From Deltaproteobacteria bacterium (lineage in GTDB: Bacteria; Desulfobacterota; GWC2-55-46), in the NCBI GenBank assembly GCA_016234935.1, contig JACRNL010000011.1:129472-193471 (forward strand): DNA of 64,000 nucleotides. The letters run 5' to 3'. Under the pieces are notes generated by a model. That model did no database searches, was not told the origin of the DNA, and saw only the letters and a list, made by a program, of their open reading frames with translations. Shown here one piece after another: positions 9,103-43,819 of the stretch (the first letter of the stretch is position 1; every line of letters begins with the position of its first letter). The translations under genes and the position numbers were made by a program.

Positions 9103-10131
9103 ATGTTAAGCGGCAAGACCATACTCATAACCGGCGGCACAGGGTCATTCGGCAAGAAGATGGTAGAGGTTATTTTGGCGCGCTACCGGCCTGAAAAACT
9201 CATAATCTTCAGCAGGGATGAATTGAAGCAATATGATATGTCGCAGAAGTGGAGCGCTGAGAAGTATCCCTGCATGCGTTATTTTTTAGGCGACGTGCGC
9301 GACAAGGACAGGCTCGTGCGCGCCTTTCACGGCGTTGATTATATAATACACGCGGCGGCGTTGAAGCAGGTGCCGGCGGCTGAATATAACCCCGCGGAGT
9401 TCATCAAGACCAACGTCAACGGCGCGATGAACGTCATTGACGCGGCAATAGACAGGAACGTGAAGAAGGTCGTAGCCCTTTCAACGGACAAGGCCTGCAA
9501 CCCCGCGAACCTCTACGGCGCGACGAAGCTCTGCTCGGATAAGCTCTTCCTTGCGGCCAGCGTCTACGGCGGGCAGGACGGCACCGTTTTCTCGGTCGTG
9601 CGCTACGGGAACGTAGTCGGCAGCCGCGGCTCCGTCATCCCGTTTTTCACAAAGGAAGCGGCTAAAGGCGTGCTGCCGATAACCGACGTCAGGATGACAC
9701 GCTTCTGGATTACCCTCGATCAGGCCGCTGACTTCGTCCTTAAGGCCCTTGCGCTCTCAAAGGGGAGCGAGGTATTCGTGCCCAAGATACCTTCAATGAA
9801 GATAACCGACCTTGCAAAGGCCATCGCCCCTGAATGTGAACACAAGATCGTAGGCATACGCCCGGGCGAAAAGATACACGAGACCCTTGTCGCGGAAGAC
9901 GAGGGCAGGAATACGGTCGAGTACAGGGAATGCTTCGTTGTCAGGCACAATTTTCTGCCTGGCGACCAGAAAAACGGCAAAAGGTGCGTCGAGGGGTTCA
10001 AATACACATCAGACAACAACACGCTCCATATCGGCATCGAAGAGCTTCGCCTCGTGCTCGCGCGCATGTCCGCTGAAGAGGGCGTGGCGGCAGGTAATCA
10101 CTGGCGCATGGAAGATTTAGCCCGCGGGTAG
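9103..10131 (+). CDS. pseB: UDP-N-acetylglucosamine 4,6-dehydratase (inverting) PseB
   Basis: MLSGKTILITGGTGSFGKK...SRDELKQ...YGATKLCSDKLF...VVRYGNVVGSRGSVIPFF...ITDVRMTRFWITLD. From memory, close to Helicobacter pylori FlaA1/PseB along its full length. Confidence 0.9.
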   Translation: MLSGKTILITGGTGSFGKKMVEVILARYRPEKLIIFSRDELKQYDMSQKWSAEKYPCMRYFLGDVRDKDRLVRAFHGVDYIIHAAALKQVPAAEYNPAEFIKTNVNGAMNVIDAAIDRNVKKVVALSTDKACNPANLYGATKLCSDKLFLAASVYGGQDGTVFSVVRYGNVVGSRGSVIPFFTKEAAKGVLPITDVRMTRFWITLDQAADFVLKALALSKGSEVFVPKIPSMKITDLAKAIAPECEHKIVGIRPGEKIHETLVAEDEGRNTVEYRECFVVRHNFLPGDQKNGKRCVEGFKYTSDNNTLHIGIEELRLVLARMSAEEGVAAGNHWRMEDLARG

Positions 10132-10146
10132 GTTTTTTTAAATCAA

Positions 10147-11361
10147 ATGCCAAAAGAAAAAAATTCCGGGTTCATACCATACGGCAGGCAGTGGATAGAT
10201 GAAGACGATATCCGCGCCGTGGCCCGGGCGCTGAGCTGCGATTATCTCACGCAGGGTCCCGGGGTGGAGCGGTTTGAAGAGGCCCTGGCCGGATATCTTG
10301 GCGCGAGGTTTGCCGTGGCGGTTTCAAGCGGCACCGCGGCGCTTCATTTAGCGTGCCTTGCCGTTGGAGTGAAAGACCGCCTTGAGGCAATAACGACCCC
10401 GATAACCTTTGCCGCAAGCGCGAACTCGGCCGTTTACTGCGGCGGAAAGCCGGTGTTTGCGGATATTGAGCCCCATACCTTTAATATTAATCCCGATGAG
10501 ATACGAAAGAAGATAACGGCGCGCGCGAAGGCGGTTATCCCCGTGCATTTCGCCGGGCTTGCCTGCGATATGGACGCCATCAGGGCCATCGCCGATGAGC
10601 GCGGCCTGACGGTCATTGAAGACGCCTGCCACGCGCTCGGCGCGGAGTATAAGGATTTAAAAGGCAAGTGGCATAAGGCCGGCTCTTGCGCCCATTCGGA
10701 CCTGTCTATCATGAGCTTCCATCCGGTAAAGCACATAACCACCGGAGAGGGCGGCGCGATACTCACAAACAGCCCGGAGCTTTATGAAAGGCTTATGCTC
10801 CTGAGGACGCACGGCATAACAAAGAAGCCGGATGCGTTTAAAAACAAGGCAATGGCCTTTGATGAAAACGGCGCGCCCAACCCCTGGTACTATGAGATGC
10901 AGGAGGCGGGGTTCAATTACAGGCTGACTGACCTGCAGTGCGCCCTGGGCATAAGCCAGCTTAAAAAGCTCGACGCCTTTGTCGCAAGAAGGCGGCGCAT
11001 AGCGGATATTTATAGCGCGGCCTTTAAGGGGATTGATCTTATAACGCCGCAGGCCGTGTCCGCAGGCAGGGTGTCGTCCTACCACCTCTACGCCGTGCAG
11101 ATTGATTTTAAGAGGCTCGGCAAAAGCCGGGCAAGAATTATGACGGAGCTTAAGGAAAAGGGCATAGGCACTCAGGTGCACTATATCCCCGTGCATTTAC
11201 AGCCCTTTTACAGGGAAAGGTTCGGATGCAAAAAGGGAGACTTCCCCGTGGCCGAGGCGTATTACGAAAAGGCCCTGAGCCTGCCCATGTACCCGAAGAT
11301 GACGGACGATGATGTGAGGCGGGTGGTCCAGGCTGTAACGGGCCTGCTAAAGGTTGCGTGA
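10147..11361 (+). CDS. pseC: UDP-4-amino-4,6-dideoxy-N-acetyl-beta-L-altrosamine transaminase PseC (DegT/DnrJ/EryC1 family)
   Basis: 404 aa PLP aminotransferase fold. DegT-type motifs, SFHPVKHITTGEGG lysine region. Confidence 0.85.
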   Translation: MPKEKNSGFIPYGRQWIDEDDIRAVARALSCDYLTQGPGVERFEEALAGYLGARFAVAVSSGTAALHLACLAVGVKDRLEAITTPITFAASANSAVYCGGKPVFADIEPHTFNINPDEIRKKITARAKAVIPVHFAGLACDMDAIRAIADERGLTVIEDACHALGAEYKDLKGKWHKAGSCAHSDLSIMSFHPVKHITTGEGGAILTNSPELYERLMLLRTHGITKKPDAFKNKAMAFDENGAPNPWYYEMQEAGFNYRLTDLQCALGISQLKKLDAFVARRRRIADIYSAAFKGIDLITPQAVSAGRVSSYHLYAVQIDFKRLGKSRARIMTELKEKGIGTQVHYIPVHLQPFYRERFGCKKGDFPVAEAYYEKALSLPMYPKMTDDDVRRVVQAVTGLLKVA

Positions 11362-12891
11362 ATGTCAAGGAAAGTCCTGCTCATAAGGCCGCGTAACGTT
11401 TATAATTACAATAATTATCCCGCGCTTAATCTTATATGCGTCGGTTCCAAGCTTAAGTCCGCCGGATATGACGTCAAGATAATCAATTGCGCCTTTGAAA
11501 ACGACCCGTTAAAGGCCATAAGCGCTGAACTGAAGGATTCTCTGTTAGCGGGCATATCGTTTCTTACCTCCGAAGTGCCTGATGCCTATGCCGTAATGAA
11601 GCACATAAAAGACAGCTCCGATTTGCCGGTGGTCGCGGGGGGCTGGCACACGACCCTTTTCCCTGAACAGATGGAGGCGTGTCAATACGTTGATTACGTG
11701 GTGGCGGGAGAGGGCGAAGAGCATATACTGAAGATAGCCGACCTGCTGGCAAAAGGAGAGCGGCCCGGGCAGAAGATATTCCCCAAAAGGATGCTCGATA
11801 TGGATACCCTGCCCATGCCGGATTATGACATCGACGGCAATATCGGCAGGTTCATGGACAGCTATCTTACGGACAAGCTCTCTGAATATGTAAGGCAGCC
11901 CATGCGGTGGCTTCCTTACGAATCAAGCCGCGGTTGCCCGTCGCATTGCACCTTCTGCATAAACGTTGTGGCAGGCAATACGCGTTACAGAAAAAAGAGC
12001 GCGGCGAAGGTTATCTCGGAGATAGAGTATATAGTAAACAAACACAAGCTTACGCACCTGAAGATAATAGACGACAACTTCTTTGTTGACATAAAGTGGG
12101 TGCGTGAGATATGCGCCGGAATAATCGACAGAGGGTTCGACATAACATGGGACGGCGAGTGCCGCTGCGACTATTTTAACGATCGTCATCTTAACGACGA
12201 AACGCTGGATCTTTGCAGAAGGTCGGGTCTTGTTCAGCTTACGCTTGGGATAGAGTCCGGCTCCGAGCATACCCTGAAGCTAATGAAAAAGGGCATAACG
12301 CCGGAGCAGGCTGAAAACGCCGTAAGGAGCTGCAACGCGCATAAGATAATAGCCAGATCGTCTTTCATACTTGAGATACCCGGAGAGACGATAGACGATA
12401 TTAAATACACGATACGGCTCATAAACAGGCTGAGAAGATACCCGTATTTCACCTGCGGGGTTGGCACCTTCAGGCCGTATCCGAAGTGCGAGCTTACCGA
12501 GAACCTCCTGAAGGAAGGCTACCTCAAGGAGCCGCGGAGTTTTGAGGAGTGGAAAATGCAGAACGTTATAGACATGTACACCTCGGCGGAATATCAAAGG
12601 CCGTGGCAGGCGAACGCTGATTATTCCGAGAGCGCGGCCTATTATCTGAACATGGAATCAAGCGTGAGGCTCGGGAACCACCAAATAGACAGGGCGCGTG
12701 ACAGGGTTATTAATAATATGTTCATATCCGTCGCGAAGCTGAGAAATAAATTGGCGTACTATGGGCTCCCTTTTGAAAAAATACTCTATAAAAGATTTCT
12801 GAAGAATTTTTACAGCAGGAGGCAGGAGATGGAAAAGAGCGGCTCGTATCCGCTGTCACGCGGTCTTGAAAAGGACGGGAAAAGGGCATGA
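11362..12891 (+). CDS. Cobalamin (B12)-binding radical SAM protein, class B
   Basis: N-terminal B12-binding Rossmann-like domain. CxxxCxxC radical SAM motif CPSHCTFC. 509 aa. Confidence 0.8.
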   Translation: MSRKVLLIRPRNVYNYNNYPALNLICVGSKLKSAGYDVKIINCAFENDPLKAISAELKDSLLAGISFLTSEVPDAYAVMKHIKDSSDLPVVAGGWHTTLFPEQMEACQYVDYVVAGEGEEHILKIADLLAKGERPGQKIFPKRMLDMDTLPMPDYDIDGNIGRFMDSYLTDKLSEYVRQPMRWLPYESSRGCPSHCTFCINVVAGNTRYRKKSAAKVISEIEYIVNKHKLTHLKIIDDNFFVDIKWVREICAGIIDRGFDITWDGECRCDYFNDRHLNDETLDLCRRSGLVQLTLGIESGSEHTLKLMKKGITPEQAENAVRSCNAHKIIARSSFILEIPGETIDDIKYTIRLINRLRRYPYFTCGVGTFRPYPKCELTENLLKEGYLKEPRSFEEWKMQNVIDMYTSAEYQRPWQANADYSESAAYYLNMESSVRLGNHQIDRARDRVINNMFISVAKLRNKLAYYGLPFEKILYKRFLKNFYSRRQEMEKSGSYPLSRGLEKDGKRA

Positions 12892-13871
12892 GGGTTTTAG
12901 TCGCAGGCACAGGGTCAATCGGCACAAGGCACATAAAGAACCTCGTCGAGCTCGGTCATGAGGTGTATGCTACTGACATAAATCAGGAGTGCCTCAAGGC
13001 CGCCGCGCCGCTTGTGAAGGGGACATTCGTGTCGCTTGACGGCGCGCTTAAGGTCAGGCCTGAAGCGGCTTTTATCTGCACATTCAGCTCAGATCATATA
13101 GAACCCGCGCGCAAATGCGCGGAGGCTGGCTGCCATATTTTTATAGAAAAGCCGCTCTCGATGGATTTAAACGGCGTGGACGAGCTGATAGATACGGCTG
13201 ACAGTAAGGGCCTTGTCACGATGGCCGGCTGCAACATGAGATTCCACCCTGCGGTGGCGCATATTAAAGGCATCCTTGACAACGAAGCCGCTTTTGCTAA
13301 AAAGCTCTGGGCAAACCTTGAGTTCGGCTATTATCTGCCGTTTGCCAAGAAGGACTACGAGTCTTCTTATATGGCAAGAAGGAGTCTGGGCGGCAATATC
13401 ATCTTCGATGTGATACATGAGCTTGATTACGCCGTTTGGTTCTTTGGAAAGCCGGTTGAGGTCTTTTGCAGCAAGGGCATACTGTCGGGCTTGAAAATAG
13501 ACACTGAAGACTACGCGGATATGATGATAAGGTTTAAGTCAGGCGCGGTTTGCGTGATACACATGGATTATCTGCAGCACGGCTACTCAAGAAGGTGCAA
13601 GGTCGTCGCCGAAGGCGGGACGGTCGTCTGGGACTTCGCGCACGGCGATATCGGCGCCGTGACCGTAAATAGCAGGCAATGGGACTGGAAGGAAATGAAA
13701 CTTGAAGCTCTCTATAACCGCATGTACGTGGATGAGGCGCAATACTTCATGGACTGCGTTTCATCCGCCAAGGATACGTTCAATCCCTTAAAGGGTGCGC
13801 TTTCCGTTCTAAAGCTCGCGCTCGCGGCGAATATATCCTGCCATACAAACAAGTGGGAGATGGTGTCATGA
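12888..13871 (+). CDS. Gfo/Idh/MocA family NAD(P)-dependent oxidoreductase
   Basis: MRVLVAGTGSIGTRHIKNL Rossmann N-terminus. 327 aa. ATGA overlap with the upstream gene. Confidence 0.8.
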   Translation: MRVLVAGTGSIGTRHIKNLVELGHEVYATDINQECLKAAAPLVKGTFVSLDGALKVRPEAAFICTFSSDHIEPARKCAEAGCHIFIEKPLSMDLNGVDELIDTADSKGLVTMAGCNMRFHPAVAHIKGILDNEAAFAKKLWANLEFGYYLPFAKKDYESSYMARRSLGGNIIFDVIHELDYAVWFFGKPVEVFCSKGILSGLKIDTEDYADMMIRFKSGAVCVIHMDYLQHGYSRRCKVVAEGGTVVWDFAHGDIGAVTVNSRQWDWKEMKLEALYNRMYVDEAQYFMDCVSSAKDTFNPLKGALSVLKLALAANISCHTNKWEMVS

Positions 13872-14737
13872 GCAAGGTTATCGGGGTAATTACGGCGAGA
13901 ATGGCGTCAACGCGCCTTCCGGGCAAGGTCTTGCTGAAGATGGCTGGTAAATCCATATTCGCGCATCATGCCGAGAGGATGCAGAACGTTAAGGGCCTTG
14001 ACGGGGTTTTTCTGGCCACGTCGGAAGACCCTCTGAATAAGCCGCTTATCGCGGAGGCGGAGCAAATGGGCTGCGGGTGGTTTGCCGGGGCTGAGCAGGA
14101 TATAGTGGACAGGCACATAAAGCTGTGCGAAAGGGAAGGGGCCGACGCCTTTATACGTGTCACCTGCGATTCTCCCATATTCGACATCGGGAGCGCGTCA
14201 AGGTTCGTATCCGAGTTCAGGAAGGAGTACAGGGACCTGATCTATGTCTCCAACATGACGATGATTCAGGGATCTCTGTCCGAGCTGCTCTCTTATAAGG
14301 CCATGGTCCAGGTGCATAAGCAGTACAGGGGCGCGGGCATCTCAATGCCTATAAAGGAAAATATGGATAAGTATAAGACCCTCGGCATAGAGATAGACGC
14401 CGACCTGTGCAGGCCTGAGTACCGCATAACGATTGACGAAGCCGTTGACATTGAAATGATAGGCAAGATATACGAGGCGCTCTATAAGGGCAGGCCGCTT
14501 GACCTTCATGAAGTATATACCTGGCTGGATGACTACCCCATGGTAGCGAAGATGAACATGCATGTCGGCATAAAGGGGTGCGAGCAGCAGAGCGCCAATC
14601 TGACGGAGATGCCGGTCTATACCGTAGTGAAGTCCGGCAAAGGCTTCGTGATACTCGATGAGCAAAAGCGCATGGTCGCGCCGGAGGATTTTATGTCAAG
14701 GGTTAAGGATATTTTCCCGCAACTAAAACGGGGATGA
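13868..14737 (+). CDS. SpsF/FlmC-type cytidylyltransferase-like protein (glycan pathway)
   Basis: VIGVITARMASTRLPGKVLL is typical of the SpsF/NeuA-like cytidylyltransferase family. Start at ATG 13868 overlaps the upstream stop. Confidence 0.65.
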   Translation: MSKVIGVITARMASTRLPGKVLLKMAGKSIFAHHAERMQNVKGLDGVFLATSEDPLNKPLIAEAEQMGCGWFAGAEQDIVDRHIKLCEREGADAFIRVTCDSPIFDIGSASRFVSEFRKEYRDLIYVSNMTMIQGSLSELLSYKAMVQVHKQYRGAGISMPIKENMDKYKTLGIEIDADLCRPEYRITIDEAVDIEMIGKIYEALYKGRPLDLHEVYTWLDDYPMVAKMNMHVGIKGCEQQSANLTEMPVYTVVKSGKGFVILDEQKRMVAPEDFMSRVKDIFPQLKRG

Positions 14738-14738
14738 A

Positions 14739-16037
14739 TTGATGACCATGAAAGACCGTTATATCCGTTCAGAAGAGATGCATAAAAGGGCGTTAAAGGC
14801 AATCCCTCTGGGCACGCAGACCTTCAGCAAGAGCAGTACCCAGTATCCGTTCGGCGTCTCCCCTTATTTTATAAAAAAGGGCAGGGGCTCGCATGTGTGG
14901 GACGTTGACGGCAACGAGTATGTTGACTTTATCAATTCCCTTGCCGCCATAACGCTCGGCTACAACGACCCTGACGTCGACGCGGCCGTGAGGGCGCAGC
15001 TTGAAGAAGGCGTGATATTTTCCCTGCCGCACGAACTTGAGATAAAGGCCGCTGAAAAGGTCATAGAGATGGTTCCGTGCGCCGAGATGGTCAGGTTCGG
15101 CAAGAACGGCTCCGACGCAACGGCCGGGGCGATACGGGTCTCAAGGGCCTTTACGAAAAGGGACCATGTCGCCGTGTGCGGCTACCACGGCTGGCAGGAC
15201 TGGTACATCGGCTCAACCGCGCGAAATCTCGGCGTGCCAAAGGCCACGCGCGAGCTGACGCATACGTTTACTTACAATAATATTGATTCGCTCGATAAGA
15301 TATTCAAGGATTACCCTAACGATGTGGCCGCAGTAATCATGGAACCGATGAACGTTTTTGAGCCGGTTGACGGATTCCTTGAAAAGGCCGCGGAGCTTAC
15401 GCGAAGAAACAACGCGGTCTTCATATTCGACGAGACCATCACGGGCTTTCGCTACGCAAACGGCGGGGCCGGCGAATATTTTAACGTGAAGCCCGACCTT
15501 GCCACATTCGGCAAGGGGCTTGCCAACGGCTATCCCGTTTCCGCGGTGGCCGGAAGGGCCGATATAATGCGGTTCATGGAGGATGTATTTTTTTCATTCA
15601 CATTCGGCGGAGAGACATTGTCCCTTGCCGCCGCTCTTACGACCATGGAAAAGTTGCAGAGGGAGCCTGTCATAAAGACCATCTGGTCTCAGGGGGCGAA
15701 GATACTTGACGGCCTTACTCCCCTTATTAAAAAGCACGGGCTTGAAGATATTCTTTCGACAGCCGGCAAGCCCTGCTGGTCTTTTCTGGTATTCAAAGAC
15801 GCGAAAGACTATACCATGTGGGAATTAAAAACACTCTTTTTGCAGGAGATATTCGCGCGCGGCGTGCTTACGCTTACCACGCACAACATGAGCTACGCGC
15901 ATACCGATGAGGACATCGCAAAGCTCCTCAAGGCGTATGACGAGGTGTTCGGGATGATGAAAGAGGCCGTGGAGGAAAAGTCGCTCTTGAAACTACTGCG
16001 CACGGAGCCTCTGGCTGCGCTCTTTAAAGTGAGATGA
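14739..16037 (+). CDS. Class III (GSA-aminomutase-like) PLP-dependent aminotransferase
   Basis: 432 aa. FIFDETITGFR and AT-III fold. Common in flagellin and nonulosonate glycosylation islands. Confidence 0.8.
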   Translation: MMTMKDRYIRSEEMHKRALKAIPLGTQTFSKSSTQYPFGVSPYFIKKGRGSHVWDVDGNEYVDFINSLAAITLGYNDPDVDAAVRAQLEEGVIFSLPHELEIKAAEKVIEMVPCAEMVRFGKNGSDATAGAIRVSRAFTKRDHVAVCGYHGWQDWYIGSTARNLGVPKATRELTHTFTYNNIDSLDKIFKDYPNDVAAVIMEPMNVFEPVDGFLEKAAELTRRNNAVFIFDETITGFRYANGGAGEYFNVKPDLATFGKGLANGYPVSAVAGRADIMRFMEDVFFSFTFGGETLSLAAALTTMEKLQREPVIKTIWSQGAKILDGLTPLIKKHGLEDILSTAGKPCWSFLVFKDAKDYTMWELKTLFLQEIFARGVLTLTTHNMSYAHTDEDIAKLLKAYDEVFGMMKEAVEEKSLLKLLRTEPLAALFKVR

Positions 16038-17107: not shown

Positions 17108-17122
17108 AGAGAGGTTTCTTGC

Positions 17123-17605
17123 GTGAAGACATCCTTTAATTCAAAAGATGCAGAGATAAATTTCAGATATATTGATGAGTCTGACGTAGAAGATCTGTTT
17201 GAATGGAGAAATCACCCTGAGGTAAGGAAAAACTCTTTTAATATGGCTCCGTTAATATTCAAGGAGCATGAAGAGTGGTTTAAGAGAAAAATTAAAAACT
17301 CTGACACAACCATATATATGGCGTGTTGTGGTAATGACAAAATAGGTTCAATCAGATTTGAAGACAATGGCGAAGTTGAAAAAGTAAGCGTGATGCTAAA
17401 CCCGAAATTTACCGGCAAAGGCCTTGGCTCCAAAATTATCAGGATTGGAACGTGGAAATTTATAAGCGAAAAGAAGCCGGGTAAACCTGTTGTCGCGGAA
17501 ATTAAAAGGGATAATATAGCTTCAATCAAGGCCTTTGAAAGAGCCGGCTTCAAGGAAAGCTTCATAACCTTTATTTTCGACGAAAAGCAGGGGAATTTTG
17601 AATAA
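17123..17605 (+). CDS. pseH: GNAT N-acetyltransferase PseH
   Basis: 160 aa GNAT between pseG and pseI. GTG start. Markedly AT-rich (about 36-40% GC by eye) relative to its neighbours. Confidence 0.75.
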   Translation: MKTSFNSKDAEINFRYIDESDVEDLFEWRNHPEVRKNSFNMAPLIFKEHEEWFKRKIKNSDTTIYMACCGNDKIGSIRFEDNGEVEKVSVMLNPKFTGKGLGSKIIRIGTWKFISEKKPGKPVVAEIKRDNIASIKAFERAGFKESFITFIFDEKQGNFE

Positions 17606-18671: not shown

Positions 18672-18697
18672 CAGGTAAAATCTTCTATTGCGGGGGG

Positions 18698-20178: not shown

Positions 20179-20198
20179 GGATTCAGCGCGCATCTTTT

Positions 20199-30896: not shown

Positions 30897-30909
30897 TAGA
30901 AGGTATGGC

Positions 30910-32708: not shown

Positions 32709-32743
32709 TTTCAGGCCAGACCTTTGCCAGACATCCGAGGGAT

Positions 32744-33673: not shown

Positions 33674-33707
33674 CCCCTGTCAGCGGTGAAAAGCGTCATT
33701 ACAAAAT

Positions 33708-33734
33708 CCCCTTGAAGGGGCTGAGCCCCCTTAG
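33708..33734. repeat. Repeat family R1 copy (partial)
   Basis: ccccttgaaggggctgagcccccttag; compare 28463-28511. Confidence 0.8.
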
Positions 33735-33769
33735 CCCTCTTTTCCAAAGGTGGGAAATAAAAATATGAG

Positions 33770-36652: not shown

Positions 36653-37825
36653 ATGCCTAAAATACTCTACATTACGGCGCGTTCCGATTACGGCGGCGGG
36701 CCTGAGCAGATGCACCTCTTGATCAAGAGGCTCTCCGCCGCATTCAAGGTCTACGTGGCCTGTCCAAACGACGTCCCTTACTTCGCAATCTTCGGAAAGT
36801 ATGCCGAGGTGCTGGAGATACCCTGCAGGAAGTTTTCGGTCGCAAGCCTTATCGCCCTTTACAAAGCGGTCAGGGAAAAGGATATAGACATAATTCATTC
36901 GCACGGCAGGGGGGCGGGCGTGTATGCCAGGCTCCTTGGGGCCATGACCCGCAAACCCGTTGTCCATACCTTTCAGGGGGTGCATCTGTGGCACCTCAGC
37001 CCGCTAAGGAAATTTCTTTATCTCTTTGTTGAAAAGGCCTTTGCCAGGGTCACGGACGTATTCATCAACGTCTCGGAGTCCGAGAGAAAGACCTGCGAAA
37101 ACGCCAATTTTTATTCCAGGAAGTTCAGGGTCGTGCCAATCGGCGTCGAGGTGCCGCCCATGCGCCGCCCCCCGCTTGATACACGCGAGGGCAGGGTAAG
37201 GCCTGACAGGCGCAGGTTTACGCTGATAAATATTTCGAGGCTCTCTTTCGAGAAGGGCGTTGACGTGCTTTTAAAAGTGGTAAAGGCGCTGGCGGACTCA
37301 GGGGCTGACTTCAAGCTCCTCCTCGCGGGCGACGGCCCTGAGCGCAAAAAGCTCGAAAAGGACGCAAAGGCCCTTGGCATCGAAAAATACGTGGTGTTCT
37401 ACGGGGCCGTCAGCGACGCGGACAAGCTGAGGCTCCTTGAGTCAGCCCACGTCTTCATGAACACGTCAAGGTGCGAGGGCATGCCGATCGCCGTTCTTGA
37501 GGCGATGGCAAGGTCTTTGCCCGTCGTTGCCACGGACGTGGCCGGCAACAAAGACGTGGTCATAAGCGGGGAAAACGGCTTTCTGTTCGACATAACGAGG
37601 CCTGAGGAAGGGGCGCGGCGGATAGTCGAGCTTATGAGAACCCCGGCGCTCTACGAACAGATGTCAACGGGCGCCTACCGGACCATGACTGAAAAATTCT
37701 CCGTTGAAACGATGTGCGAAAGCACGAAGGAAATATATATGTCCCTGCTTGGCGCCGTCAAAAAAAAAGGCGCGCTGCCGGGCAAGGCATACAGGGATAA
37801 GGCCGCAGCGGTCAATGCAAAATAA
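36653..37825 (+). CDS. Family 4 glycosyltransferase (GT4, GT-B)
   Basis: 390 aa. E-x7-E-type C-terminal region ...GMPIAVLEAMARSLPVVATDVAGNKDVV. Overall length fits RfaG/WcaL-like GT4. Confidence 0.8.
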   Translation: MPKILYITARSDYGGGPEQMHLLIKRLSAAFKVYVACPNDVPYFAIFGKYAEVLEIPCRKFSVASLIALYKAVREKDIDIIHSHGRGAGVYARLLGAMTRKPVVHTFQGVHLWHLSPLRKFLYLFVEKAFARVTDVFINVSESERKTCENANFYSRKFRVVPIGVEVPPMRRPPLDTREGRVRPDRRRFTLINISRLSFEKGVDVLLKVVKALADSGADFKLLLAGDGPERKKLEKDAKALGIEKYVVFYGAVSDADKLRLLESAHVFMNTSRCEGMPIAVLEAMARSLPVVATDVAGNKDVVISGENGFLFDITRPEEGARRIVELMRTPALYEQMSTGAYRTMTEKFSVETMCESTKEIYMSLLGAVKKKGALPGKAYRDKAAAVNAK

Positions 37826-37876
37826 GCGGCCCCCGCTTAGGGCACGCGAGGGCAGGAACGGTTTGATAGGACGAGG

Positions 37877-37913
37877 GTTGAACCCCCTGAGGGGGTTCGA
37901 CCCCTTCAAGGGG
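37877..37913. repeat. Repeat family R1 copy, inverted orientation
   Basis: aaccccctgagggggttcgaccccttcaagggg is the reverse complement of the 28463 element. Confidence 0.8.
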
Positions 37914-37918
37914 CATGA

Positions 37919-38929
37919 ATGTTTATGAAGAATAAAAAGATACTCGTCACAGGCGCGGACGGTTTTATCGGGTCGCATCTCACGGAGGAGCTTGTGCGCC
38001 GCGGTTTTACGGTCAAGGCCTTTGTCATGTATAATTCCTTTAATTCATGGGGATGGCTCGACAGGTCCGAGCCGGAGATTTTAAAATCAATCGAGGTCTT
38101 CGCGGGCGACATCAGGGACCCCCACGGCGTGAGGAACGCCATGAAGGGCTGCGACGTGGTGATGCACCTTGCCGCGCTCATAGCCATACCGTACTCCTAC
38201 CACTCCCCTGACACATACGTTGACACGAACGTCAAGGGCACGCTGAACGTGGTGCAGGCCGCGAGGGAGCTGGGGACAAGCAGGGTCGTGCATACCTCGA
38301 CGAGCGAAGTCTACGGCACGGCGAGGTTCGTGCCCATTACCGAGGAGCATCCTTTACAGGGGCAGTCGCCGTATTCGGCCTCCAAGATAGGCGCCGACCA
38401 TATAGCCATGTCCTTTCACAGCTCCTTTGAAACGCCGGTTGTTGTTTTGAGGCCGTTCAACACATACGGGCCGCGCCAGTCGGCAAGGGCCGTCATACCG
38501 GCGATAATAACCCAGATAGCAAGCGGCGCAAGGAGCCTGAAGCTCGGGGCAATCCACCCCACCAGGGACTTTAACTACATCTCGGACATCGTCCGCGGTT
38601 TTATTGCCGCGGCGGAATCCGACGGGGCGGTCGGCGAGGTCATTAACTGCGGAAGCGGCTTCGAGATTTCCATCGGTGATACCGTCCGCATGATAGCGGA
38701 TATAATGGGCGCTGAATGCGAGATACAGACCGACAATGAGCGTCTGCGCCCGGCAGGGAGCGAGGTCGAGCGCCTGCTGGCCGACAATTCCAAGGCAAAG
38801 CGCATCATGGGATGGACGCCCGCATACGCCGGCATGGAAGGCCTGAGGCGCGGCCTTGGCGAGACGATAGAATGGTTTCGCAATCCTGAGAATCTCAAGT
38901 CCTACAAGGCCGGCCTGTATAATATCTGA
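37919..38929 (+). CDS. NAD-dependent epimerase/dehydratase (SDR, CDP-sugar pathway; possibly CDP-paratose-2-epimerase/tyvelose-epimerase-like)
   Basis: ILVTGADGFIGSHL Rossmann motif, YxxxK (YSASK). Internal YNSFNSWGWLD segment resembles CDP-paratose 2-epimerase-type enzymes, from memory only. Confidence 0.7.
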   Translation: MFMKNKKILVTGADGFIGSHLTEELVRRGFTVKAFVMYNSFNSWGWLDRSEPEILKSIEVFAGDIRDPHGVRNAMKGCDVVMHLAALIAIPYSYHSPDTYVDTNVKGTLNVVQAARELGTSRVVHTSTSEVYGTARFVPITEEHPLQGQSPYSASKIGADHIAMSFHSSFETPVVVLRPFNTYGPRQSARAVIPAIITQIASGARSLKLGAIHPTRDFNYISDIVRGFIAAAESDGAVGEVINCGSGFEISIGDTVRMIADIMGAECEIQTDNERLRPAGSEVERLLADNSKAKRIMGWTPAYAGMEGLRRGLGETIEWFRNPENLKSYKAGLYNI

Positions 38930-38999
38930 GCCGCGTTTCGCGGCATGATGATTTTTGTTTGCGAGGGCGTATGCTGATTTTAAGATGGAGGGCAGGGCT

Positions 39000-39713
39000 A
39001 TGCATGCCGTTATTTTAGCGGGGGGAAAGGGCACAAGGCTCAGGCCCTATACCATTAATTTTCCTAAGCCCCTTGTTCCCGTCGGAGACTATCCGATACT
39101 TGAGGTTATAATCCGCCAGCTCGCTTCATCCGGTTTTAAACGGGTGACCATTTCCACCGGACACCTGTCTGAACTGATAGAGGCATACTTCGGCAACGGC
39201 AGGCGCTGGGGCGTGGATATCGAATATGTGCGGGAGTATACGCCGCTTAATACGGCCGGTGCGTTAAAGCTGGTGGAGCGCTGCGAAGACGACTTTCTGG
39301 TCATGAACGGCGACGTCCTTACAACGCTTGATTACGGCAAACTCTTGGCCTTGCACGTGGAAAAAGGTGTAAAGGCCACGATAGCATCAAAGTCCCGCGA
39401 ATCCAAAATCGACTTCGGCGTTCTTAAGATAGACGAGAACGGATTTCTCGATGAATATATCGAGAAGCCTGTGTACAACTTTTCGGTCAGCATGGGGGTC
39501 TACGTCCTTTCAAAGGAGGCTACAGGCCTGATAGGCGATGGGGAGGCCATTGGAATGCCTGATTTGCTCCTTCGAATTAAGAAGGCCGGTGAAAAGGTCT
39601 ACTGCCACAGGAGCGACTGCTACTGGCTGGACATCGGCAGGATGGATGATTATGAAAAGGCGCAGGAAGAGTTTGAAGCCAACAAACATATTTTTTTGAA
39701 GGACAATGGATAA
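39000..39713 (+). CDS. Sugar-1-phosphate nucleotidyltransferase
   Basis: MHAVILAGGKGTRLRPYT NTP-transferase N-terminus. Start at ATG 39000 with SD ggaggg 8 nt upstream. The track ORF begins at an upstream TTG. Confidence 0.75.
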   Translation: MHAVILAGGKGTRLRPYTINFPKPLVPVGDYPILEVIIRQLASSGFKRVTISTGHLSELIEAYFGNGRRWGVDIEYVREYTPLNTAGALKLVERCEDDFLVMNGDVLTTLDYGKLLALHVEKGVKATIASKSRESKIDFGVLKIDENGFLDEYIEKPVYNFSVSMGVYVLSKEATGLIGDGEAIGMPDLLLRIKKAGEKVYCHRSDCYWLDIGRMDDYEKAQEEFEANKHIFLKDNG

Positions 39714-40620
39714 CAAAACCGTTCTGATTACCGGTATGCATGGTTTTATCGGGAGACATCTGGCCGCGGCATTGAGGGAGGCTTTTCACGGGGTAAGGGT
39801 CGAAGGCGTGGACAGGGCCGGCAGGCATGAAAGCCCGGACTGCCGCGGCCTCGACCTGCTGGAGCCTGAATGCGCCGTTAGAGTGATAGGCGGGGTCAGG
39901 CCCGATTATATCTTTCATCTGGCGGGCGTTGTTTATTCAAAGGATCTGCGCGAGCTTTACAGGGGCAACGTGGAAACGACCGTAAATATCCTTGACGCGG
40001 TTAAGAAGGCAGGGCTTCCCGCAAGGGTTGTCGTCGCCGGCTCCGCCGCGGAGTACGGAGATGTTTCATCTGAAGATTTGCCCATTTCGGAAAAATTAGT
40101 CCCCAATCCGGCGAGCCCTTACGGCGTGTCAAAGGTCTGGCAGACTACCGTGGCAAGGTATTACGCGCAGACAGGCGTTGACACGGTAGTCGGCAGGCTG
40201 TTTAACGTTATCGGCCAGGGAGCTCCGGAAGGGCTTTCCATAGGGGCCTTTGCCGGCCAGTTGAAAAAAATCAGGCGCGGCGATCTGCCGCCGGAGCTGT
40301 CGGTCGGCAATCTCAAGCCAAGGCGCGACTTCATAGACGTCGTTGATGCCTGCCGCGGCCTTGCCGCCATTGCGGAAAAAGGAAGGTCAGGGGAGATATA
40401 CAATATCTGCTCCGGCTCGTCGGTATCGATGGAGAGCGTCCTCGGCATGATGATAGAGGCATCCGGGCTGGAGGTAAGGGTCGCCATTGACCCCGCGAGA
40501 TTCAAGGGCGCGGACGCCGGGGACGTGCGGGGTTCAAGCGCCAAGATATCGTCCGAGACAGGCTGGCAGCCGTCAGTGCCGCTGCTTAGCAGCATCGCGG
40601 CAATGGTAGGCGGATTTTAG
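39706..40620 (+). CDS. NAD(P)-dependent 4-ketoreductase/epimerase (SDR; Rmd/GDP-fucose-synthase-like)
   Basis: VLITGMHGFIGRHL motif and catalytic YGVSK. 304 aa. Confidence 0.75.
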   Translation: MDNKTVLITGMHGFIGRHLAAALREAFHGVRVEGVDRAGRHESPDCRGLDLLEPECAVRVIGGVRPDYIFHLAGVVYSKDLRELYRGNVETTVNILDAVKKAGLPARVVVAGSAAEYGDVSSEDLPISEKLVPNPASPYGVSKVWQTTVARYYAQTGVDTVVGRLFNVIGQGAPEGLSIGAFAGQLKKIRRGDLPPELSVGNLKPRRDFIDVVDACRGLAAIAEKGRSGEIYNICSGSSVSMESVLGMMIEASGLEVRVAIDPARFKGADAGDVRGSSAKISSETGWQPSVPLLSSIAAMVGGF

Positions 40621-40654
40621 ACCCCGGTGGACAGTAATCAGGAGGAGAGAGCGC

Positions 40655-41458
40655 ATGAAGGCGGTGATTCTATGCGGGGGGCAGGGGACGCGCATAAGGG
40701 ACGTTTCAGATAATATCCCCAAGCCCATGATCCCTCTGGGGGGTTATCCCATACTCTGGCACATCATGAAGTATTATTCGCACTGGGGGCACAGCTCGTT
40801 TGTCCTGTGCCTCGGGGTCAAGGGACAGGTCATCAAGGATTTTTTTCTGAACTACGAGGCGCACACGAGAGACTTCACCGTGTCGCTCGGCCAGTCGAGG
40901 TCCATCGAATATCACAGCGTGCATGACGAGGCGGACTGGCGCGTGACGCTCGCTGATACGGGCCTTGAGGCCATGACAGGGGCGCGCGTAAAGAGGGTGA
41001 AACATTACCTCGCCGGAGAAGAAAATTTTCTGCTGACATACGGCGACGGCGTCGGCGACGTTGACATCGACAGGCTGGTCAAGTTCCACCTGTCTCACGG
41101 CAAGGTAATGACGGTCACAGGCGTGAGGCCTCCGGGAAGGTTCGGCGAGATAATGAGCGGGCCCGGCGGCCTCGTAACGGAGTTCAATGAAAAGCCGCAG
41201 GCTGCCGGCGGCAGGATATCAGGCGGGTTTTTCGTCTGCCGTAAGGAACTGTTTGACTACCTGGATGACAGGGAAGGCCTCGTCTTTGAGCAGGAGCCAA
41301 TACGCGCTCTCGTGCGCGCATCTCAGATGATGGTCTATGAGCACGACGGCTTCTGGCAGCCGATGGACACGTCGCGCGATTACCTGTATCTCAACGGCCT
41401 TTGCGCGGCAGGAAAGGCGCCGTGGACGGTCTGGCGCAACCCGGAGGGTAAGGGATGA
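40655..41458 (+). CDS. rfbF: Glucose-1-phosphate cytidylyltransferase RfbF
   Basis: MKAVILCGGQGTRIRDVSDNIPKPMIPLGGYPILWHIMKYYSHWG is the characteristic RfbF N-terminus. 267 aa. Confidence 0.85.
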   Translation: MKAVILCGGQGTRIRDVSDNIPKPMIPLGGYPILWHIMKYYSHWGHSSFVLCLGVKGQVIKDFFLNYEAHTRDFTVSLGQSRSIEYHSVHDEADWRVTLADTGLEAMTGARVKRVKHYLAGEENFLLTYGDGVGDVDIDRLVKFHLSHGKVMTVTGVRPPGRFGEIMSGPGGLVTEFNEKPQAAGGRISGGFFVCRKELFDYLDDREGLVFEQEPIRALVRASQMMVYEHDGFWQPMDTSRDYLYLNGLCAAGKAPWTVWRNPEGKG

Positions 41459-41904
41459 TAGACGGCGTTAAGATAACTCCATTAAAGCAGATACCGGATG
41501 AGCGCGGGCGGATAATGCACATGCTCCGCGCCGACGCGCCGCACTTCGTCCGGTTCGGCGAGATATATTTTTCATCCGTGTATCCAGGGGCTATAAAGGG
41601 ATGGCATCTGCATAAACTCATGACGATAAATTACGCGGTTCCCCACGGCAATATTAAATTCGTTCTTTATGACGGCCGCAAGGACAGTCCCACCAAAGGC
41701 CGGCTGCAGGAGATATTCCTCGGGCCGGACAATTACAACCTCGTCACAGTGCCTCCGCTTATCTGGAACGGGTACAAGGGGATAGGCCTTCAACCGGCCA
41801 TCGTCGCGAACTGCGCGAGCCTCGCGCACGACCCTGAGGAGATGGACAGGCTCGACCCGTTTGACCCGCTTATTCCTTACGACTGGGAGATAAAGCACAG
41901 ATGA
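41455..41904 (+). CDS. RmlC-like cupin, sugar-nucleotide 3,5-epimerase family
   Basis: 149 aa cupin ...GEIYFSSVYPGAIKGWHLHK.... ATGA overlap with rfbF. Confidence 0.75.
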   Translation: MIDGVKITPLKQIPDERGRIMHMLRADAPHFVRFGEIYFSSVYPGAIKGWHLHKLMTINYAVPHGNIKFVLYDGRKDSPTKGRLQEIFLGPDNYNLVTVPPLIWNGYKGIGLQPAIVANCASLAHDPEEMDRLDPFDPLIPYDWEIKHR

Positions 41905-42869
41905 CGCGCGAGGTCCTCATCACCGGGGGCCTCGGCTATGCGGGCGGCCGCATCGCCCGCTTCCTTGCCGGGCGGCCCGATATGACGCTTCGCCTCGGCA
42001 CGCGCCTTCGGCATGAGGCCGCGCCGGAGTGGCTTAAAAACGGCCGCGTCGTCCGGATGGACTTTGAATCGCCGGACTCGCTGGCAGGCGCCTTGGCCGG
42101 GGTGAATTGCGTGATTCATCTTGCGGCCATGAACGAGTTGGACAGCGCCGCAAACCCCGAAGGCGCGCTGATTGTAAACGGCCTGTATTCCCTAAAACTC
42201 CTGAACGCGGCAATGCGCGCGGGCGCTGAGAGGTTTATTTATTTTTCAACGGGGCATGTCTACGGCAGCCCGCTTGAAGGCAGGATAACCGAAGACAGCG
42301 TTACGCGGCCCGTTCACCCCTACGCCATAACGCACAGGGTAAGCGAGGATTTTGTCCTTGCGGCCCATGACCGGAAAAAGCTCGTCGGCGTGGTTTTAAG
42401 GCTCACAAACGGCTTCGGCGCGCCGGAAAGGGCCGACGTCAACCGATGGACGCTGCTGGTCAATGACCTGTGCAGGCAGGCCGTGACAACCGGCGCTCTT
42501 GTTCTTCGCTCCTCCGGCATCCAATACCGGGACTTCATCACGCTTGAAGACGTCGCAAGGGCCGCCGGTCATTTCGCGGCCCTTCCAGCCGAGGCCTGCG
42601 GCAAAGGCCTTTTCAACCTCGGCGGCCAGCGCTCCATGACCATCCTTGAGATGACTGAGCGCATTAGCGCAAGGTGCCAGGCTGTCCTCGGTTTTAGGCC
42701 GCGCATCGTCCGGCCCGAAGCCGCCGCCCTTGAGGACGGCGCGGCAAGGCCGCTTGATTTTTGCATAGACAGGCTGAAGGCGACCGGCTTTACCCTTACC
42801 GGCGATATAGACGCGGAGATAGACGCGACCCTTTGCCTTTGCAAAAAAGCATTCGGGCAGGGCGCGTGA
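41901..42869 (+). CDS. NAD-dependent epimerase/dehydratase family protein (atypical catalytic region)
   Basis: VLITGGLGYAGGRIA Rossmann motif, 322 aa. The YxxxK appears replaced by YAITHR. Confidence 0.65.
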   Translation: MTREVLITGGLGYAGGRIARFLAGRPDMTLRLGTRLRHEAAPEWLKNGRVVRMDFESPDSLAGALAGVNCVIHLAAMNELDSAANPEGALIVNGLYSLKLLNAAMRAGAERFIYFSTGHVYGSPLEGRITEDSVTRPVHPYAITHRVSEDFVLAAHDRKKLVGVVLRLTNGFGAPERADVNRWTLLVNDLCRQAVTTGALVLRSSGIQYRDFITLEDVARAAGHFAALPAEACGKGLFNLGGQRSMTILEMTERISARCQAVLGFRPRIVRPEAAALEDGAARPLDFCIDRLKATGFTLTGDIDAEIDATLCLCKKAFGQGA

Positions 42870-43819
42870 TGAAGGCCGTGAACTCAGGCGGCCCGCCGCC
42901 GTTCGTTACGGTAATCGTCACGACCTACAACCGCGCGAAACTCCTTTCAGAGACCATCTCTTCAATACTCAATCAGAGTTTTGCGGATTTTGAGCTTATA
43001 ATTGTTGACAATATGTCCGAAGACGCCACCCAAGGGTATGTCACGGGCCTTAACGACCGGCGTATAAGGTTTTTTAAGAACCCGAATAACGGGATCATCG
43101 CGGTCAACCGGAACTTCGGCATAAAAAGGGCGAGGGGCAAATACATCGCCTTTTGCGACGACGACGACCTGTGGTTCCCGGATAAGCTCAAGACACAGGT
43201 TGAGTTCATGGAGTCGAATCCGGACGTGGGGCTGACCTTCAGCAACGCCGAGACATTTGGAGACGGCGCCACAGGCAGGGCCATTTACGCCAAAGGCGAG
43301 AGCGAATCGGTGAAGGATTTTAATTCGCTTTTGAGGGGAAATAAAATTGCCGCCTTCACCGTTATGGCCGCAAAGAACTGTCTTGACGATGTTGGTCTTT
43401 TTGACGAGAGCCCGGAGCTTAAATCCATCGAGGATTACGACCTGTGGCTGAGGGTTGCCCGTAAATACGCCCTTGCCTGCATGCCGCAAATGCTCGGCAG
43501 ATACCGCGTGCATTCTGCAAGGACGAGCGGAGACGATGTCTTTGAGAAAAAGAAGCTTCTGCGGCTGGTGGAAAAATTCAAAAAGAGCGGTCTTGCCGGC
43601 AGGTGCGAGGCTCGCATGATGGAGTCGCACGTTCATTGGATGATAGGCAATTCAGTTCTGTTGAGTGGGGCAAACGGGGACGCAGCCTTCCGGGCACACT
43701 ACCGCCGCGCATTGTCGCTTTCGCTTAACGTAAGGACATTGCTAAGTTTTATGCTTACACTCGCGCCTACCGGAGTTGCGGCCGGCATATTCAGGTTTAT
43801 TGGAAGAGCCAGGGTCTAA
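42869..43819 (+). CDS. Family 2 glycosyltransferase (GT-A)
   Basis: VTVIVTTYNRAKLL...DDDD (D-x-D). Start at ATG 42869, overlapping the upstream stop (TGATG). The Arg-rich upstream extension is rejected. Confidence 0.8.
   Translation: MKAVNSGGPPPFVTVIVTTYNRAKLLSETISSILNQSFADFELIIVDNMSEDATQGYVTGLNDRRIRFFKNPNNGIIAVNRNFGIKRARGKYIAFCDDDDLWFPDKLKTQVEFMESNPDVGLTFSNAETFGDGATGRAIYAKGESESVKDFNSLLRGNKIAAFTVMAAKNCLDDVGLFDESPELKSIEDYDLWLRVARKYALACMPQMLGRYRVHSARTSGDDVFEKKKLLRLVEKFKKSGLAGRCEARMMESHVHWMIGNSVLLSGANGDAAFRAHYRRALSLSLNVRTLLSFMLTLAPTGVAAGIFRFIGRARV

Follow-up and report, generated by a model that had tools for sequence, protein, structure and literature searches.

The stretch of DNA analysed here, a window of 64,000 nucleotides from the genome assembly of an uncultured deltaproteobacterium (GCA_016234935.1, contig JACRNL010000011.1), contains at positions 9103–43819 (~35 kb) a nonulosonate-containing surface-glycan locus with a bona fide pseudaminic acid (Pse) core. 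The locus is distinguished by an extension of ~12 genes, conserved across phyla, with radical S-adenosylmethionine (radical-SAM), class-III aminotransferase and 3-dehydroquinate-synthase (DHQS) chemistry. It is further distinguished by three large transferase families that are unannotated in the libraries searched, by a LegB-type cassette in the absence of a legionaminic acid (Leg) pathway, and by the lack of polymerisation genes.

An earlier note on this DNA, made from the sequence alone, had given the same limits for the locus, and these match exactly the start of the first open reading frame (ORF) and the end of the last. Between them runs an unbroken series of 32 ORFs on the + strand, each encoding at least 149 amino acids; the 34 genes counted previously are slightly too many, and no additional ORF fits in any of the gaps. 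The many ATGA/TGATG junctions described before are present: overlaps account for 16 of the 31 junctions, with the 4-bp ATGA type in nine cases, and three others are no longer than 3 bp, which brings the junctions of at most 3 bp to 19 of 31. Five longer intergenic gaps measure 93–198 bp. The block is flanked on the 5′ side by trmFO (609 bits) and on the 3′ side by a convergent macB-macA-tolC set on the − strand, and positions 9103 and 43819 are therefore natural borders. The GC content is 0.49–0.55 within the locus and 0.55–0.58 in the flanks. ORF starts were called mechanically, and at four places they run past the probable true starts (20199/20244, 22267/22315, 42761/42866–42869 and 13853/13868).

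Gene identities were judged by the curated (equivalog) bit-score cut-offs of NCBIfam, by Pfam and by PDB sequence searches. Four of the six Pse enzymes named in the earlier note pass their equivalog cut-offs. These are PseB, the inverting UDP-GlcNAc 4,6-dehydratase (9103–10131; TIGR03589, 494 bits against a cut-off of 408), the DegT-type aminotransferase PseC (10147–11361; TIGR03588, 511 against 423), the UDP-sugar hydrolase PseG (16034–17107; TIGR03590, 308 against 154) and the pseudaminic acid synthase PseI (17598–18671; TIGR03586, 483 against 340), which scores 294 bits on the NeuB model, under the cut-off of 400. PseH and PseF are recognisable at the family level only, with two candidates for each. 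The profile search, which had been proposed as the test of the Pse assignment, thus upholds it in substance. A caveat applies to PseG, as B. subtilis employs the PseG-like SpsG for a Leg pathway (PMC7439481). The PseH candidate GNAT1 (17123–17605; TIGR03585, 48 bits against a cut-off of 93) occupies the canonical slot between pseG and pseI and has a weak match to the PseH of PDB entry 4xpk (E 3e-5). The other candidate, the N-acyltransferase GNAT2 (18653–19255; PF13302), reaches 45 bits on the PseH model (cut-off 93), and its position directly 3′ of pseI is kept in the four sister loci L002–L005 that are described below.

Four genes interrupt the Pse genes between pseC and pseG. B12-binding radical-SAM enzyme 1 (11362–12891; PF02310 and PF04055) is a probable C-methyltransferase whose NCBIfam matches all lie far under the cut-offs; its PDB matches, to TsrM, CysS, OxsB and TokK, are weak, and it is 73% identical to its counterpart in L003. 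It is followed by a Gfo/Idh/MocA NAD(P) oxidoreductase (12888–13871; PF01408 and PF22725), which scores 98 bits on the IolG model and 75 bits on the UDP-GlcNAc 3-dehydrogenase model, both under cut-off. The next gene encodes CTP294, a long cytidylyltransferase of the CTP_transf_3 type (13853–14737, start possibly the ATG at 13868; PF02348). Among solved structures, the deposited cytidylyltransferase 6oew comes closest to it, with KdsB next, and a scan against NCBIfam gave no PseF match. AT3 is a class-III aminotransferase that resembles glutamate-1-semialdehyde (GSA) aminomutase (14739–16037; PF00202; PRK06209, 435 bits against a cut-off of 486) and shows 70–76% identity across phyla. Natural fusions of a CTP_transf_3 cytidylyltransferase with a class-III aminotransferase, 672 residues in length, occur in other bacteria (P0134, P0178; L045, 5478–7496), and CTP294 and AT3 may thus be regarded as a functional pair because their homologues form one protein elsewhere. 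In L045, the oxidoreductase ahead of the fused protein is an aldo/keto reductase in place of Gfo/Idh/MocA.

Downstream of this first module (module A, 9103–19255) lies module B (19399–29421). It begins with MT1, a class-I SAM methyltransferase (19399–20178; PF08241; 48 bits on the Pse_Me-ase model TIGR03587, cut-off 112) that adjoins U703 in every locus of comparison. U703, a TagF/TarL-like GT-B transferase of an unannotated family, spans 20199–22310 (annotated start at 20244, 688 aa, HZB82_08670). The Wzx flippase predicted earlier is borne out by a PF01943 match (85 bits) of a MOP-type protein with ~10 transmembrane segments (22267–23787, start probably the ATG at 22315). MT2, a second class-I SAM methyltransferase (23791–24687; PF13489, 75 bits), precedes U646 (24684–26624; HZB82_08685), a TagF-like GT-B transferase with an HP motif. 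The NeuA/PseF-like cytidylyltransferase CTP221 (26621–27286; TIGR03584, 75 bits over the full length against a cut-off of 206) has CMP-N-acetylneuraminate (CMP-Neu5Ac) synthetases as its best PDB matches. The adjacent DHQS-type enzyme (27283–28434; 319 bits on the AroB model TIGR01357, cut-off 305) retains the metal, phosphate and substrate motifs in the alignment with Vibrio cholerae AroB (3okf), and scores 201 bits against true DHQS compared with 117 bits against 2-deoxy-scyllo-inosose synthase. Its partner, a classical SDR oxidoreductase (28633–29421; PRK06138, 250 bits, under cut-off), closes the module.

Module C (29466–36465) opens with B12-binding radical-SAM enzyme 2 (29466–30896; PF02310 and PF04055; HpnJ and BchE models ~110 bits, under cut-off) and two class-I methyltransferases, MT3 (30886–31680; UbiG model 62 bits, under cut-off) and MT4 (31677–32708; UbiG model 38 bits), the latter with a single tblastn match in the other loci fetched. 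Two radical-SAM proteins of the SPASM/twitch type (both PF04055 and PF13186) frame the third large protein. The first (32744–33673) is BtrN-like, with BtrN as its best PDB match (E 9e-16), and the second lies at 35587–36465. Between them is U606, a putative GT-B transferase with an HP motif (33770–35590; TIGR04326, 56 bits against a cut-off of 250). Homologues of U606, 29% identical, sit after U703 in L004, L007, L011 and L014. In the Margulisiibacteriota, the U606–SPASM pair is followed by extra NeuB and cytidylyltransferase genes, and this gene order suggests that U606 serves a further nonulosonate there. In Pfam and NCBIfam, the tailoring complement listed earlier proved correct throughout: two B12-radical-SAM enzymes, two SPASM radical-SAM enzymes, four methyltransferases, a class-III aminotransferase, a second GNAT, and Gfo/Idh/MocA, SDR and DHQS proteins.

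The three large proteins, U703 (703/688 aa), U646 (646 aa) and U606 (606 aa), escape the usual family libraries. Nothing meaningful was retrieved when they were compared with PDB sequences; U703 has no match in Pfam or NCBIfam, and U646 and U606 have sub-threshold matches only. PF04464 in particular was not matched in Pfam by any of the three, and only some relatives of U646 reach 25 bits. AlphaFold models built from homologue alignments are confident for U703 and U646 (pLDDT 90.9 and 88.9), and both show a GT-B fold that resembles TagF/TarL. BLASTP revealed no global paralogy among the three, and hhalign gives the pair U703 and U646 a probability of 7.8%; U646 and U606 share only a short C-terminal GT-B motif that contains HP. 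TagB-domain proteins are candidates for the Pse/Leg transferases of Tannerella according to PMC7439481, which also notes HP motifs in sialyltransferases. From the GT-B models, the shared HP motif and this published proposal, we infer that U703, U646 and U606 are transferases for cytidine-activated acid sugars; the gene identities, the folds and the conserved gene context are direct observations, and the donors are putative. Together with the GT4 and GT2 proteins recognised by Pfam/NCBIfam at the 3′ end of the locus, the three large proteins, two of them modelled as GT-B, account for the glycosyltransferase candidates, at least five, of the earlier note.

U703 belongs to a real, mid-sized family that is unannotated in the libraries searched, and of 1.84 billion cluster representatives, 2040 match it at E ≤ 1e-3 and 1013 at E ≤ 1e-30. 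The copy of Pfam used predates PF27878 ('PFTS_polysacc') and PF27859, both of which appear in precomputed annotations. In L045, the place of U703 is taken by a 647-aa protein (12991–14934) that carries a precomputed match to PF27878 and is 24% identical to U703 over 199 aa. On the strength of this resemblance, U703 may belong to, or neighbour, this very recently defined family.

The contexts of U703 homologues show that most of this arrangement is not peculiar to the window. The order of 18 genes, pseB-pseC-B12rSAM-Gfo-CTP(~290 aa)-AT3-pseG-GNAT-neuB-GNAT-MT-U703-Wzx-MT-U646-CTP(~220 aa)-DHQS-SDR, is kept in L002 (Ignavibacteriae), L003 (Nitrospiraceae), L004 (Margulisiibacteriota) and L005 (Ca. 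Brocadia). A scan of one genome per GTDB species yielded 39 loci, nearly all from uncultured lineages and including Omnitrophota, Saganbacteria/WOR-1, Lindowbacteria, Flavobacteria, Alphaproteobacteria, Clostridia and Scalindua, and a tblastn matrix was computed over them. U703, Wzx, U646 and CTP221 occur together in 13 distinct loci, with DHQS (and SDR) directly 3′ of CTP221 in 10. A homologue of PseI/NeuB lies within 10 kb in 19 of the 23 loci with a long match to the U703 family. Three blocks recur in at least 13 metagenome-assembled genomes of other phyla, pseC-B12rSAM-Gfo-CTP-AT3-pseG-pseI-GNAT, MT-U703 and Wzx-MT-U646-CTP-DHQS-SDR, and they stay whole even where their order is permuted (L007, L011 and L014, for example). 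CTP294, AT3, CTP221, DHQS and SDR are 50–77% identical between phyla, a level that indicates lateral spread of the module as a unit. The comparison thus describes the locus as a set of modules travelling together between phyla. Toxin–antitoxin pairs (NTP_transf_2/HepT-HEPN, PIN, ParE/RelB and TumE) stud the sister loci between biosynthetic genes (L002, 514–5533 and 17902–18568; L005, 2559–3196 and 5547–6366); none is found within the locus of this window.

The 3′ end of the locus (36653–43819) is variable. It begins with a GT4 glycosyltransferase (36653–37825; EpsE model 128 bits, under cut-off) for which tblastn gave no match in the other loci fetched. GT4, MT4 and the RmlC-like gene are essentially confined to this window in the tblastn comparison. 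A LegB-equivalog NDP-N-acetylhexosamine (NDP-HexNAc) 4,6-dehydratase follows (37919–38929; TIGR04180, 528 bits against a cut-off of 475), which had gone unrecognised. Next are a sugar-1-phosphate nucleotidyltransferase (38955–39713; mannose-1-phosphate guanylyltransferase model 161 bits and MurU model 120 bits, both under cut-off) and SDR epimerase/reductase 1 (39706–40620; GalE and LegB models 87–89 bits, under cut-off). The second set comprises the glucose-1-phosphate cytidylyltransferase RfbF (40655–41458; TIGR02623, 312 bits against a cut-off of 300), an RmlC-like cupin, either a 3,5-epimerase or an isomerase (41455–41904; PF00908, 37 bits against a cut-off of 27), and SDR epimerase/reductase 2 (41901–42869; PF01370, 114 bits). 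The last gene encodes a GT2 glycosyltransferase (42761–43819; PF00535, 115 bits from residue 50). Its true start is probably at 42866/42869, and a start at these GTG/ATG codons would abolish the apparent 109-bp overlap with SDR 2.

The CDP-hexose sub-pathway proposed earlier for this region has to be revised. RfbF passes its cut-off, whereas no CDP-glucose 4,6-dehydratase (RfbG) equivalog was found, the best TIGR02622 score being 99 bits for the LegB-like protein against a cut-off of 278. The region really contains two cassettes, LegB-like dehydratase with nucleotidyltransferase and SDR, and RfbF with RmlC-like protein and SDR. RfbF brings the cytidylyltransferases of the locus to three, alongside CTP294 and CTP221. 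A second nonulosonate pathway, leading to Leg, was considered and rejected, with only LegB and the nucleotidyltransferase present: LegC, LegH, LegG (NeuC), LegI and LegF are absent from the window, PseI is its single NeuB-family synthase, and no NeuC-type epimerase occurs. PseC scores 248 on the LegC model, for which the cut-off is 420. The LegB–nucleotidyltransferase–SDR trio also adjoins U703-like C-terminal domains in loci of Terriglobia and Rhodocyclaceae (L030–L034).

Whether the block is split by terminators into unrelated operons was checked as well. Terminator-like sites are not enriched over shuffled sequences (30 against 23 ± 5.4, and 25 against 22 ± 4.1), and their counts alone are therefore uninformative. 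The only intergenic terminator-like hairpin with a U-tract (28507–28526) falls between the genes for DHQS and SDR, which are 198 bp apart. It forms part of a palindromic segment on the + strand (28471–28526; minimum free energy −47.5 kcal/mol, z −3.9). Two GC-rich palindromes, CCCCTTSAAGGGG and CCCCCTNAGGGGG, have 5 and 3 matches, compared with ~0.1–0.2 expected by chance, at 28471–28526, 33708–33720 (gap 33674–33769), 37883–37913 (gap 37826–37918), 58748–58778 and 58945–58957. By sequence, they look like repetitive extragenic palindromic (REP)-type elements. In L002 and L004, the DHQS gene overlaps or directly adjoins that of the SDR, and the palindromes recur in other gaps, so that the 198-bp gap represents a REP-like insertion inside a functional unit. 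On this basis and on the conserved synteny, a division into unrelated operons was rejected; several transcripts from the block are possible.

Taken together, these data support the earlier view that the block is one functional glycan locus, founded on a Pse pathway and equipped with a radical-SAM and methyl tailoring complement of unusual size. The block probably constitutes one functional Wzx-dependent surface-glycan locus that places a further aminated or methylated Pse derivative on a lipid-linked glycan. In the proposed scheme, module A would convert UDP-GlcNAc to pseudaminic acid through PseB, PseC, a GNAT acting as PseH, PseG and PseI. The Gfo/Idh/MocA protein, CTP294, AT3, GNAT2 and B12-radical-SAM enzyme 1 would then act on the (CMP-)nonulosonate, turning one remaining hydroxyl into an amine by oxidation and transamination, acylating this amine and C-methylating the skeleton, to give a triamino and/or C-methyl Pse derivative. 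Every chemical step past Pse5Ac7Ac is inferred. A triamino nonulosonate is chemically precedented by the 8-amino (5,7,8-triamino) nonulosonate in the O-antigen of Flexibacter maritimus (PMC3210612). Module B would contribute two methyltransferases, the transferases U703 and U646, most likely using cytidine-nucleotide donors, the Wzx flippase, CTP221 and the DHQS/SDR pair. In module C, B12-radical-SAM enzyme 2, MT3, MT4 and the two BtrN-like radical-SAM oxidoreductases would add oxidation, epimerisation and methylation, with U606 as a third transferase. The variable end would supply ordinary sugars: the LegB-like dehydratase, nucleotidyltransferase and reductase would lead to an NDP-6-deoxy-HexNAc, and RfbF, the RmlC-like protein and SDR to a CDP-6-deoxyhexose, with GT4 and GT2 as the transferases. 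With an initiating transferase that is encoded elsewhere, the oligosaccharide would be assembled on a polyprenyl carrier and then flipped by Wzx; LPS core, protein and lipid are the candidates for its final acceptor.

Several observations weigh against this interpretation. Both PseH candidates (48 and 45 bits against 93) and the PseF candidate (75 against 206) fall short of the equivalog cut-offs, and two proteins compete for the activation of Pse, the NeuA-like CTP221 and CTP294, which lies inside the Pse block. The scheme of oxidation, transamination, acylation and C-methylation on a nonulosonate is drawn by analogy only. The DHQS-type protein passes the cut-off of the housekeeping AroB model; its context is that of a glycan module, in which it is kept with CTP221 and SDR in 10 loci of other phyla at 50–64% identity. 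The terminator-like hairpin and the four other gaps of 93–187 bp allow for several transcription units. Finally, an initiating transferase, Wzy, Wzz, a ligase and an oligosaccharyltransferase are absent from the locus and from the fetched parts of the sister loci, and Wzx is therefore what the lipid-linked route rests on. Family scans of the locus and flank ORFs gave no match for Wzy, Wzz/Wzc or a phosphoglycosyltransferase of the WecA/WbaP type, and Wzx is the only polytopic protein of the 32. The absence described in the earlier note is thus real, and it carries little information, since the genes of initiating transferases are often unlinked and those of Wzy and Wzz/Wzc may be located outside the window. 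An O-linked protein glycan or a lipooligosaccharide, rather than a polymer, is possible as the product.

The TagF/TarL-like proteins could instead be phosphotransferase polymerases, which would make the product a teichoic-acid-like or group-2-capsule-like phosphodiester polymer. Such a product would fit the PF04464 matches in relatives of U646 and the cytidine-linked donors provided by RfbF and the two CTP_transf_3 enzymes. However, CTP_transf_3 products are CMP-monophosphate sugars, such as those of Kdo, neuraminic acid and Pse, that normally serve as glycosyl donors and not as phospho-donors. There is no CDP-glycerol or CDP-ribitol synthase in the locus, and export proceeds via Wzx and not via the ABC transporter usual for phosphodiester polymers. 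TagB-domain proteins have, moreover, already been put forward as Pse/Leg glycosyltransferases (PMC7439481). We regard a phosphodiester polymer as unlikely. It is very unlikely that two unrelated units stand side by side, namely an ordinary Pse operon and a small-molecule (aminocyclitol/aminoglycoside-like) cluster with a DHQS-type cyclase, BtrN-like radical-SAM dehydrogenases, a class-III aminotransferase and B12-radical-SAM C-methyltransferases. In many phyla, the genes assigned to the small-molecule cluster are interspersed, in a fixed order, among Pse genes, Wzx and GT-B transferases, and genes for resistance, regulation or export typical of antibiotic clusters are missing. The closest solved relative of the SPASM enzyme is indeed BtrN, and AT3 matches aminoglycoside C-6′ aminotransferases (E 1e-41). 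The relatives of the DHQS-type protein include 2-deoxy-scyllo-inosose synthase, but it is far closer to true DHQS (the 201 against 117 bits given above); a terminator-like hairpin lies 3′ of its gene, but in other loci this gene and that of the SDR abut.

The combination of a Pse pathway with methyltransferases and extra acyl and amino tailoring is typical of flagellin glycosylation islands, and a chaperone-usher pilus operon lies 7 kb downstream of the locus. The block might accordingly be a cytoplasmic O-glycosylation island like those of Campylobacter and Aeromonas, where a flagellin or pilin is modified directly with CMP-Pse derivatives. This we hold to be highly improbable. U703, U646 and U606 have no Maf (PF01973) match in Pfam, and no flagellin or flagellar gene was found among the window ORFs scanned. 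Wzx, needless for cytoplasmic glycosylation, is a fixed member of the conserved module, and GT2, GT4 and the two 6-deoxy-sugar cassettes favour a hetero-oligosaccharide. A flagellin glycosylation island was rejected on the lack of Maf and flagellar genes and on the conservation of Wzx.

Within the reading of one Wzx-dependent surface-glycan locus, the assumption that all tailoring enzymes act on one nonulosonate, made in the earlier note, is open to doubt. Behind the NeuA-like cytidylyltransferase there is always a precursor cassette of its own, DHQS and SDR here and, in other loci, a pair of proteins resembling a pyruvate aldolase and a 2-keto-3-deoxygluconate (KDG) kinase. L003 has two CTP221 paralogues, one before DHQS–SDR and the other before 4-hydroxy-2-oxovalerate-aldolase-like and KDG-kinase-like proteins, and in Brocadia-type loci the aldolase/kinase pair replaces DHQS/SDR. 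In L003 (17102–19900) and L005 (17128–19952), the pair behind the CTP221 paralogue consists of a 574-aa aldolase-like protein and a KDG-kinase-like PfkB protein, which are without counterpart in the window; the aldolase-like protein of L005 has a weak MptE/Maf-like match. Both cassettes contain enzymes that handle 3-deoxy-2-ulosonate-type acids or phosphates, the substrate class of CTP_transf_3. Because of this, and because of the constant pairing with a cytidylyltransferase, the locus possibly also makes a second CMP-activated acid, and DHQS and SDR would probably supply or remodel such an acid, of the 3-deoxy-ulosonate type. A more specific proposal, which we consider unlikely, is that CTP221, DHQS and SDR make and CMP-activate a carbocyclic quinate-like 'carba-ulosonic acid', and that a TagF-like GT-B enzyme installs the product beside the triamino, C-methylated pseudaminic acid. 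In that case, the C1(OH)(COOH) centre would mimic the anomeric carbon of Kdo and sialic acids, and the pyruvate-aldolase-like/KDG-kinase-like pair 5′ of the trio in sister loci could supply a dedicated substrate of the 3-deoxy-D-arabino-heptulosonate 7-phosphate (DAHP) type. If true, the carba-ulosonic acid would represent a class of bacterial surface sugar not known before and common among uncultured phyla, namely Omnitrophota, Margulisiibacteriota, Nitrospirota and anammox Planctomycetota.

On cell surfaces, nonulosonic acids are key to recognition by phages and the immune system and to charge, and mass-spectrometric surveys keep meeting undescribed environmental variants. Literature searches for Pse with radical SAM, nonulosonic acid with dehydroquinate synthase, triamino nonulosonic acids, and Leg with class-III aminotransferase returned nothing relevant. 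In the literature searched, B12-radical-SAM, BtrN-like radical-SAM or DHQS-type chemistry was not described in a glycan pathway, and neither a paper on this module nor a characterised counterpart was found, in line with the earlier statement that the product has not been characterised. The nearest experimental hint comes from the S-layer glycan of the anammox bacterium Kuenenia, which carries undescribed methyl-series and free-amine nonulosonates and for which only a neuraminate-synthase homologue is named in the text searched (bioRxiv 10.1101/2020.12.03.409086); the gene set of the present locus could explain such variants. Three unannotated transferase families also emerge from the locus, and one of these has ~2000 cluster representatives in public data.

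Other genes of the window lie outside the locus. At its beginning (9–3311), a 1100-aa fusion of an MFS transporter, an acyltransferase and an AMP-binding ligase, with the Aas/LplT-like architecture of lysophospholipid recycling, is followed by ABC-2 transporter genes. In the region 49822–54398, the chaperone-usher pilus operon comprises a PapD-like chaperone (51210–51995) and the usher (52011–54398), and a 367-aa protein without Pfam match lies upstream of it (49822–50925). Haem-copper oxidase subunits I and III (55344–57573 and 59691–60494) are encoded beside a multihaem c-type cytochrome (doubled CXXCH, cytochrome c7/c3), and a PQQ/BamB-like beta-propeller protein (61276–62403) lies near the oxidase genes.

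A comparison with known systems places the locus between several of them. Pse is found in Wzx/Wzy loci such as the K loci of Acinetobacter baumannii and O7/O9 of Pseudomonas aeruginosa. The present locus resembles Wzx/Wzy O-antigen and capsule loci in that nucleotide-sugar genes, glycosyltransferases and Wzx form one co-directional block with a GC content below that of the flanks. By contrast, Wzy, Wzz/Wzc and an initiating transferase are lacking, and three novel large GT-B proteins take the place of small acid-sugar glycosyltransferases. With the CMP-Pse pathway of Helicobacter pylori and Campylobacter jejuni, it shares the PseB, PseC, PseG and PseI equivalogs, the GNAT between pseG and pseI and a NeuA/PseF-like cytidylyltransferase. 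It differs from that pathway in being interrupted by genes for a B12-radical-SAM enzyme, a Gfo/Idh/MocA protein, a second cytidylyltransferase and a class-III aminotransferase, in its PseH and PseF scores, which are under cut-off, and in having Wzx without Maf or a flagellar context.

The tailoring of aminoglycosides follows the same enzyme logic. In gentamicin (GenD2/GenS2/GenN/GenD1 and GenK) and butirosin (BtrC/BtrN) biosynthesis, an NAD oxidoreductase and an aminotransferase convert a hydroxyl to an amine, a B12-radical-SAM enzyme C-methylates the sugar, the oxidation of a secondary alcohol falls to a radical-SAM enzyme with a twitch domain, and a member of the DHQS family takes part. The locus is not a member of this group: identities are low, family scores are far under cut-off, the context is that of a Wzx glycan and the substrate is presumably a nonulosonate.

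In Tannerella forsythia, a Wzx-type route leads to an extracytoplasmic acceptor, and we know of no Tannerella counterpart of the radical-SAM and DHQS complement. The Pse/Leg locus for its S-layer O-glycan is similar to ours in linking a nonulosonate pathway to TagB/TagF-like GT-B proteins, which are the putative Pse/Leg transferases (as cited in PMC7439481). U703, U646 and U606 differ in that they measure 600–700 aa and go unrecognised by the Pfam and NCBIfam libraries used; they are likened to the Tannerella proteins by description. The O-antigen cluster of Legionella pneumophila Sg6/12 uses an ABC (Wzm/Wzt) route, WecA and a HisH/HisF amidotransferase, and the part of it that is listed contains no B12-radical-SAM or DHQS gene (PMC3694923). 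Its genes lp6_762–766 are given there as a GNAT, a PseG-like protein, a GSA-aminomutase-like class-III aminotransferase, an acylneuraminate cytidylyltransferase and an acetyltransferase, and the Legionella cluster thereby contains the same unit of PseG, class-III aminotransferase and cytidylyltransferase as the locus described here.

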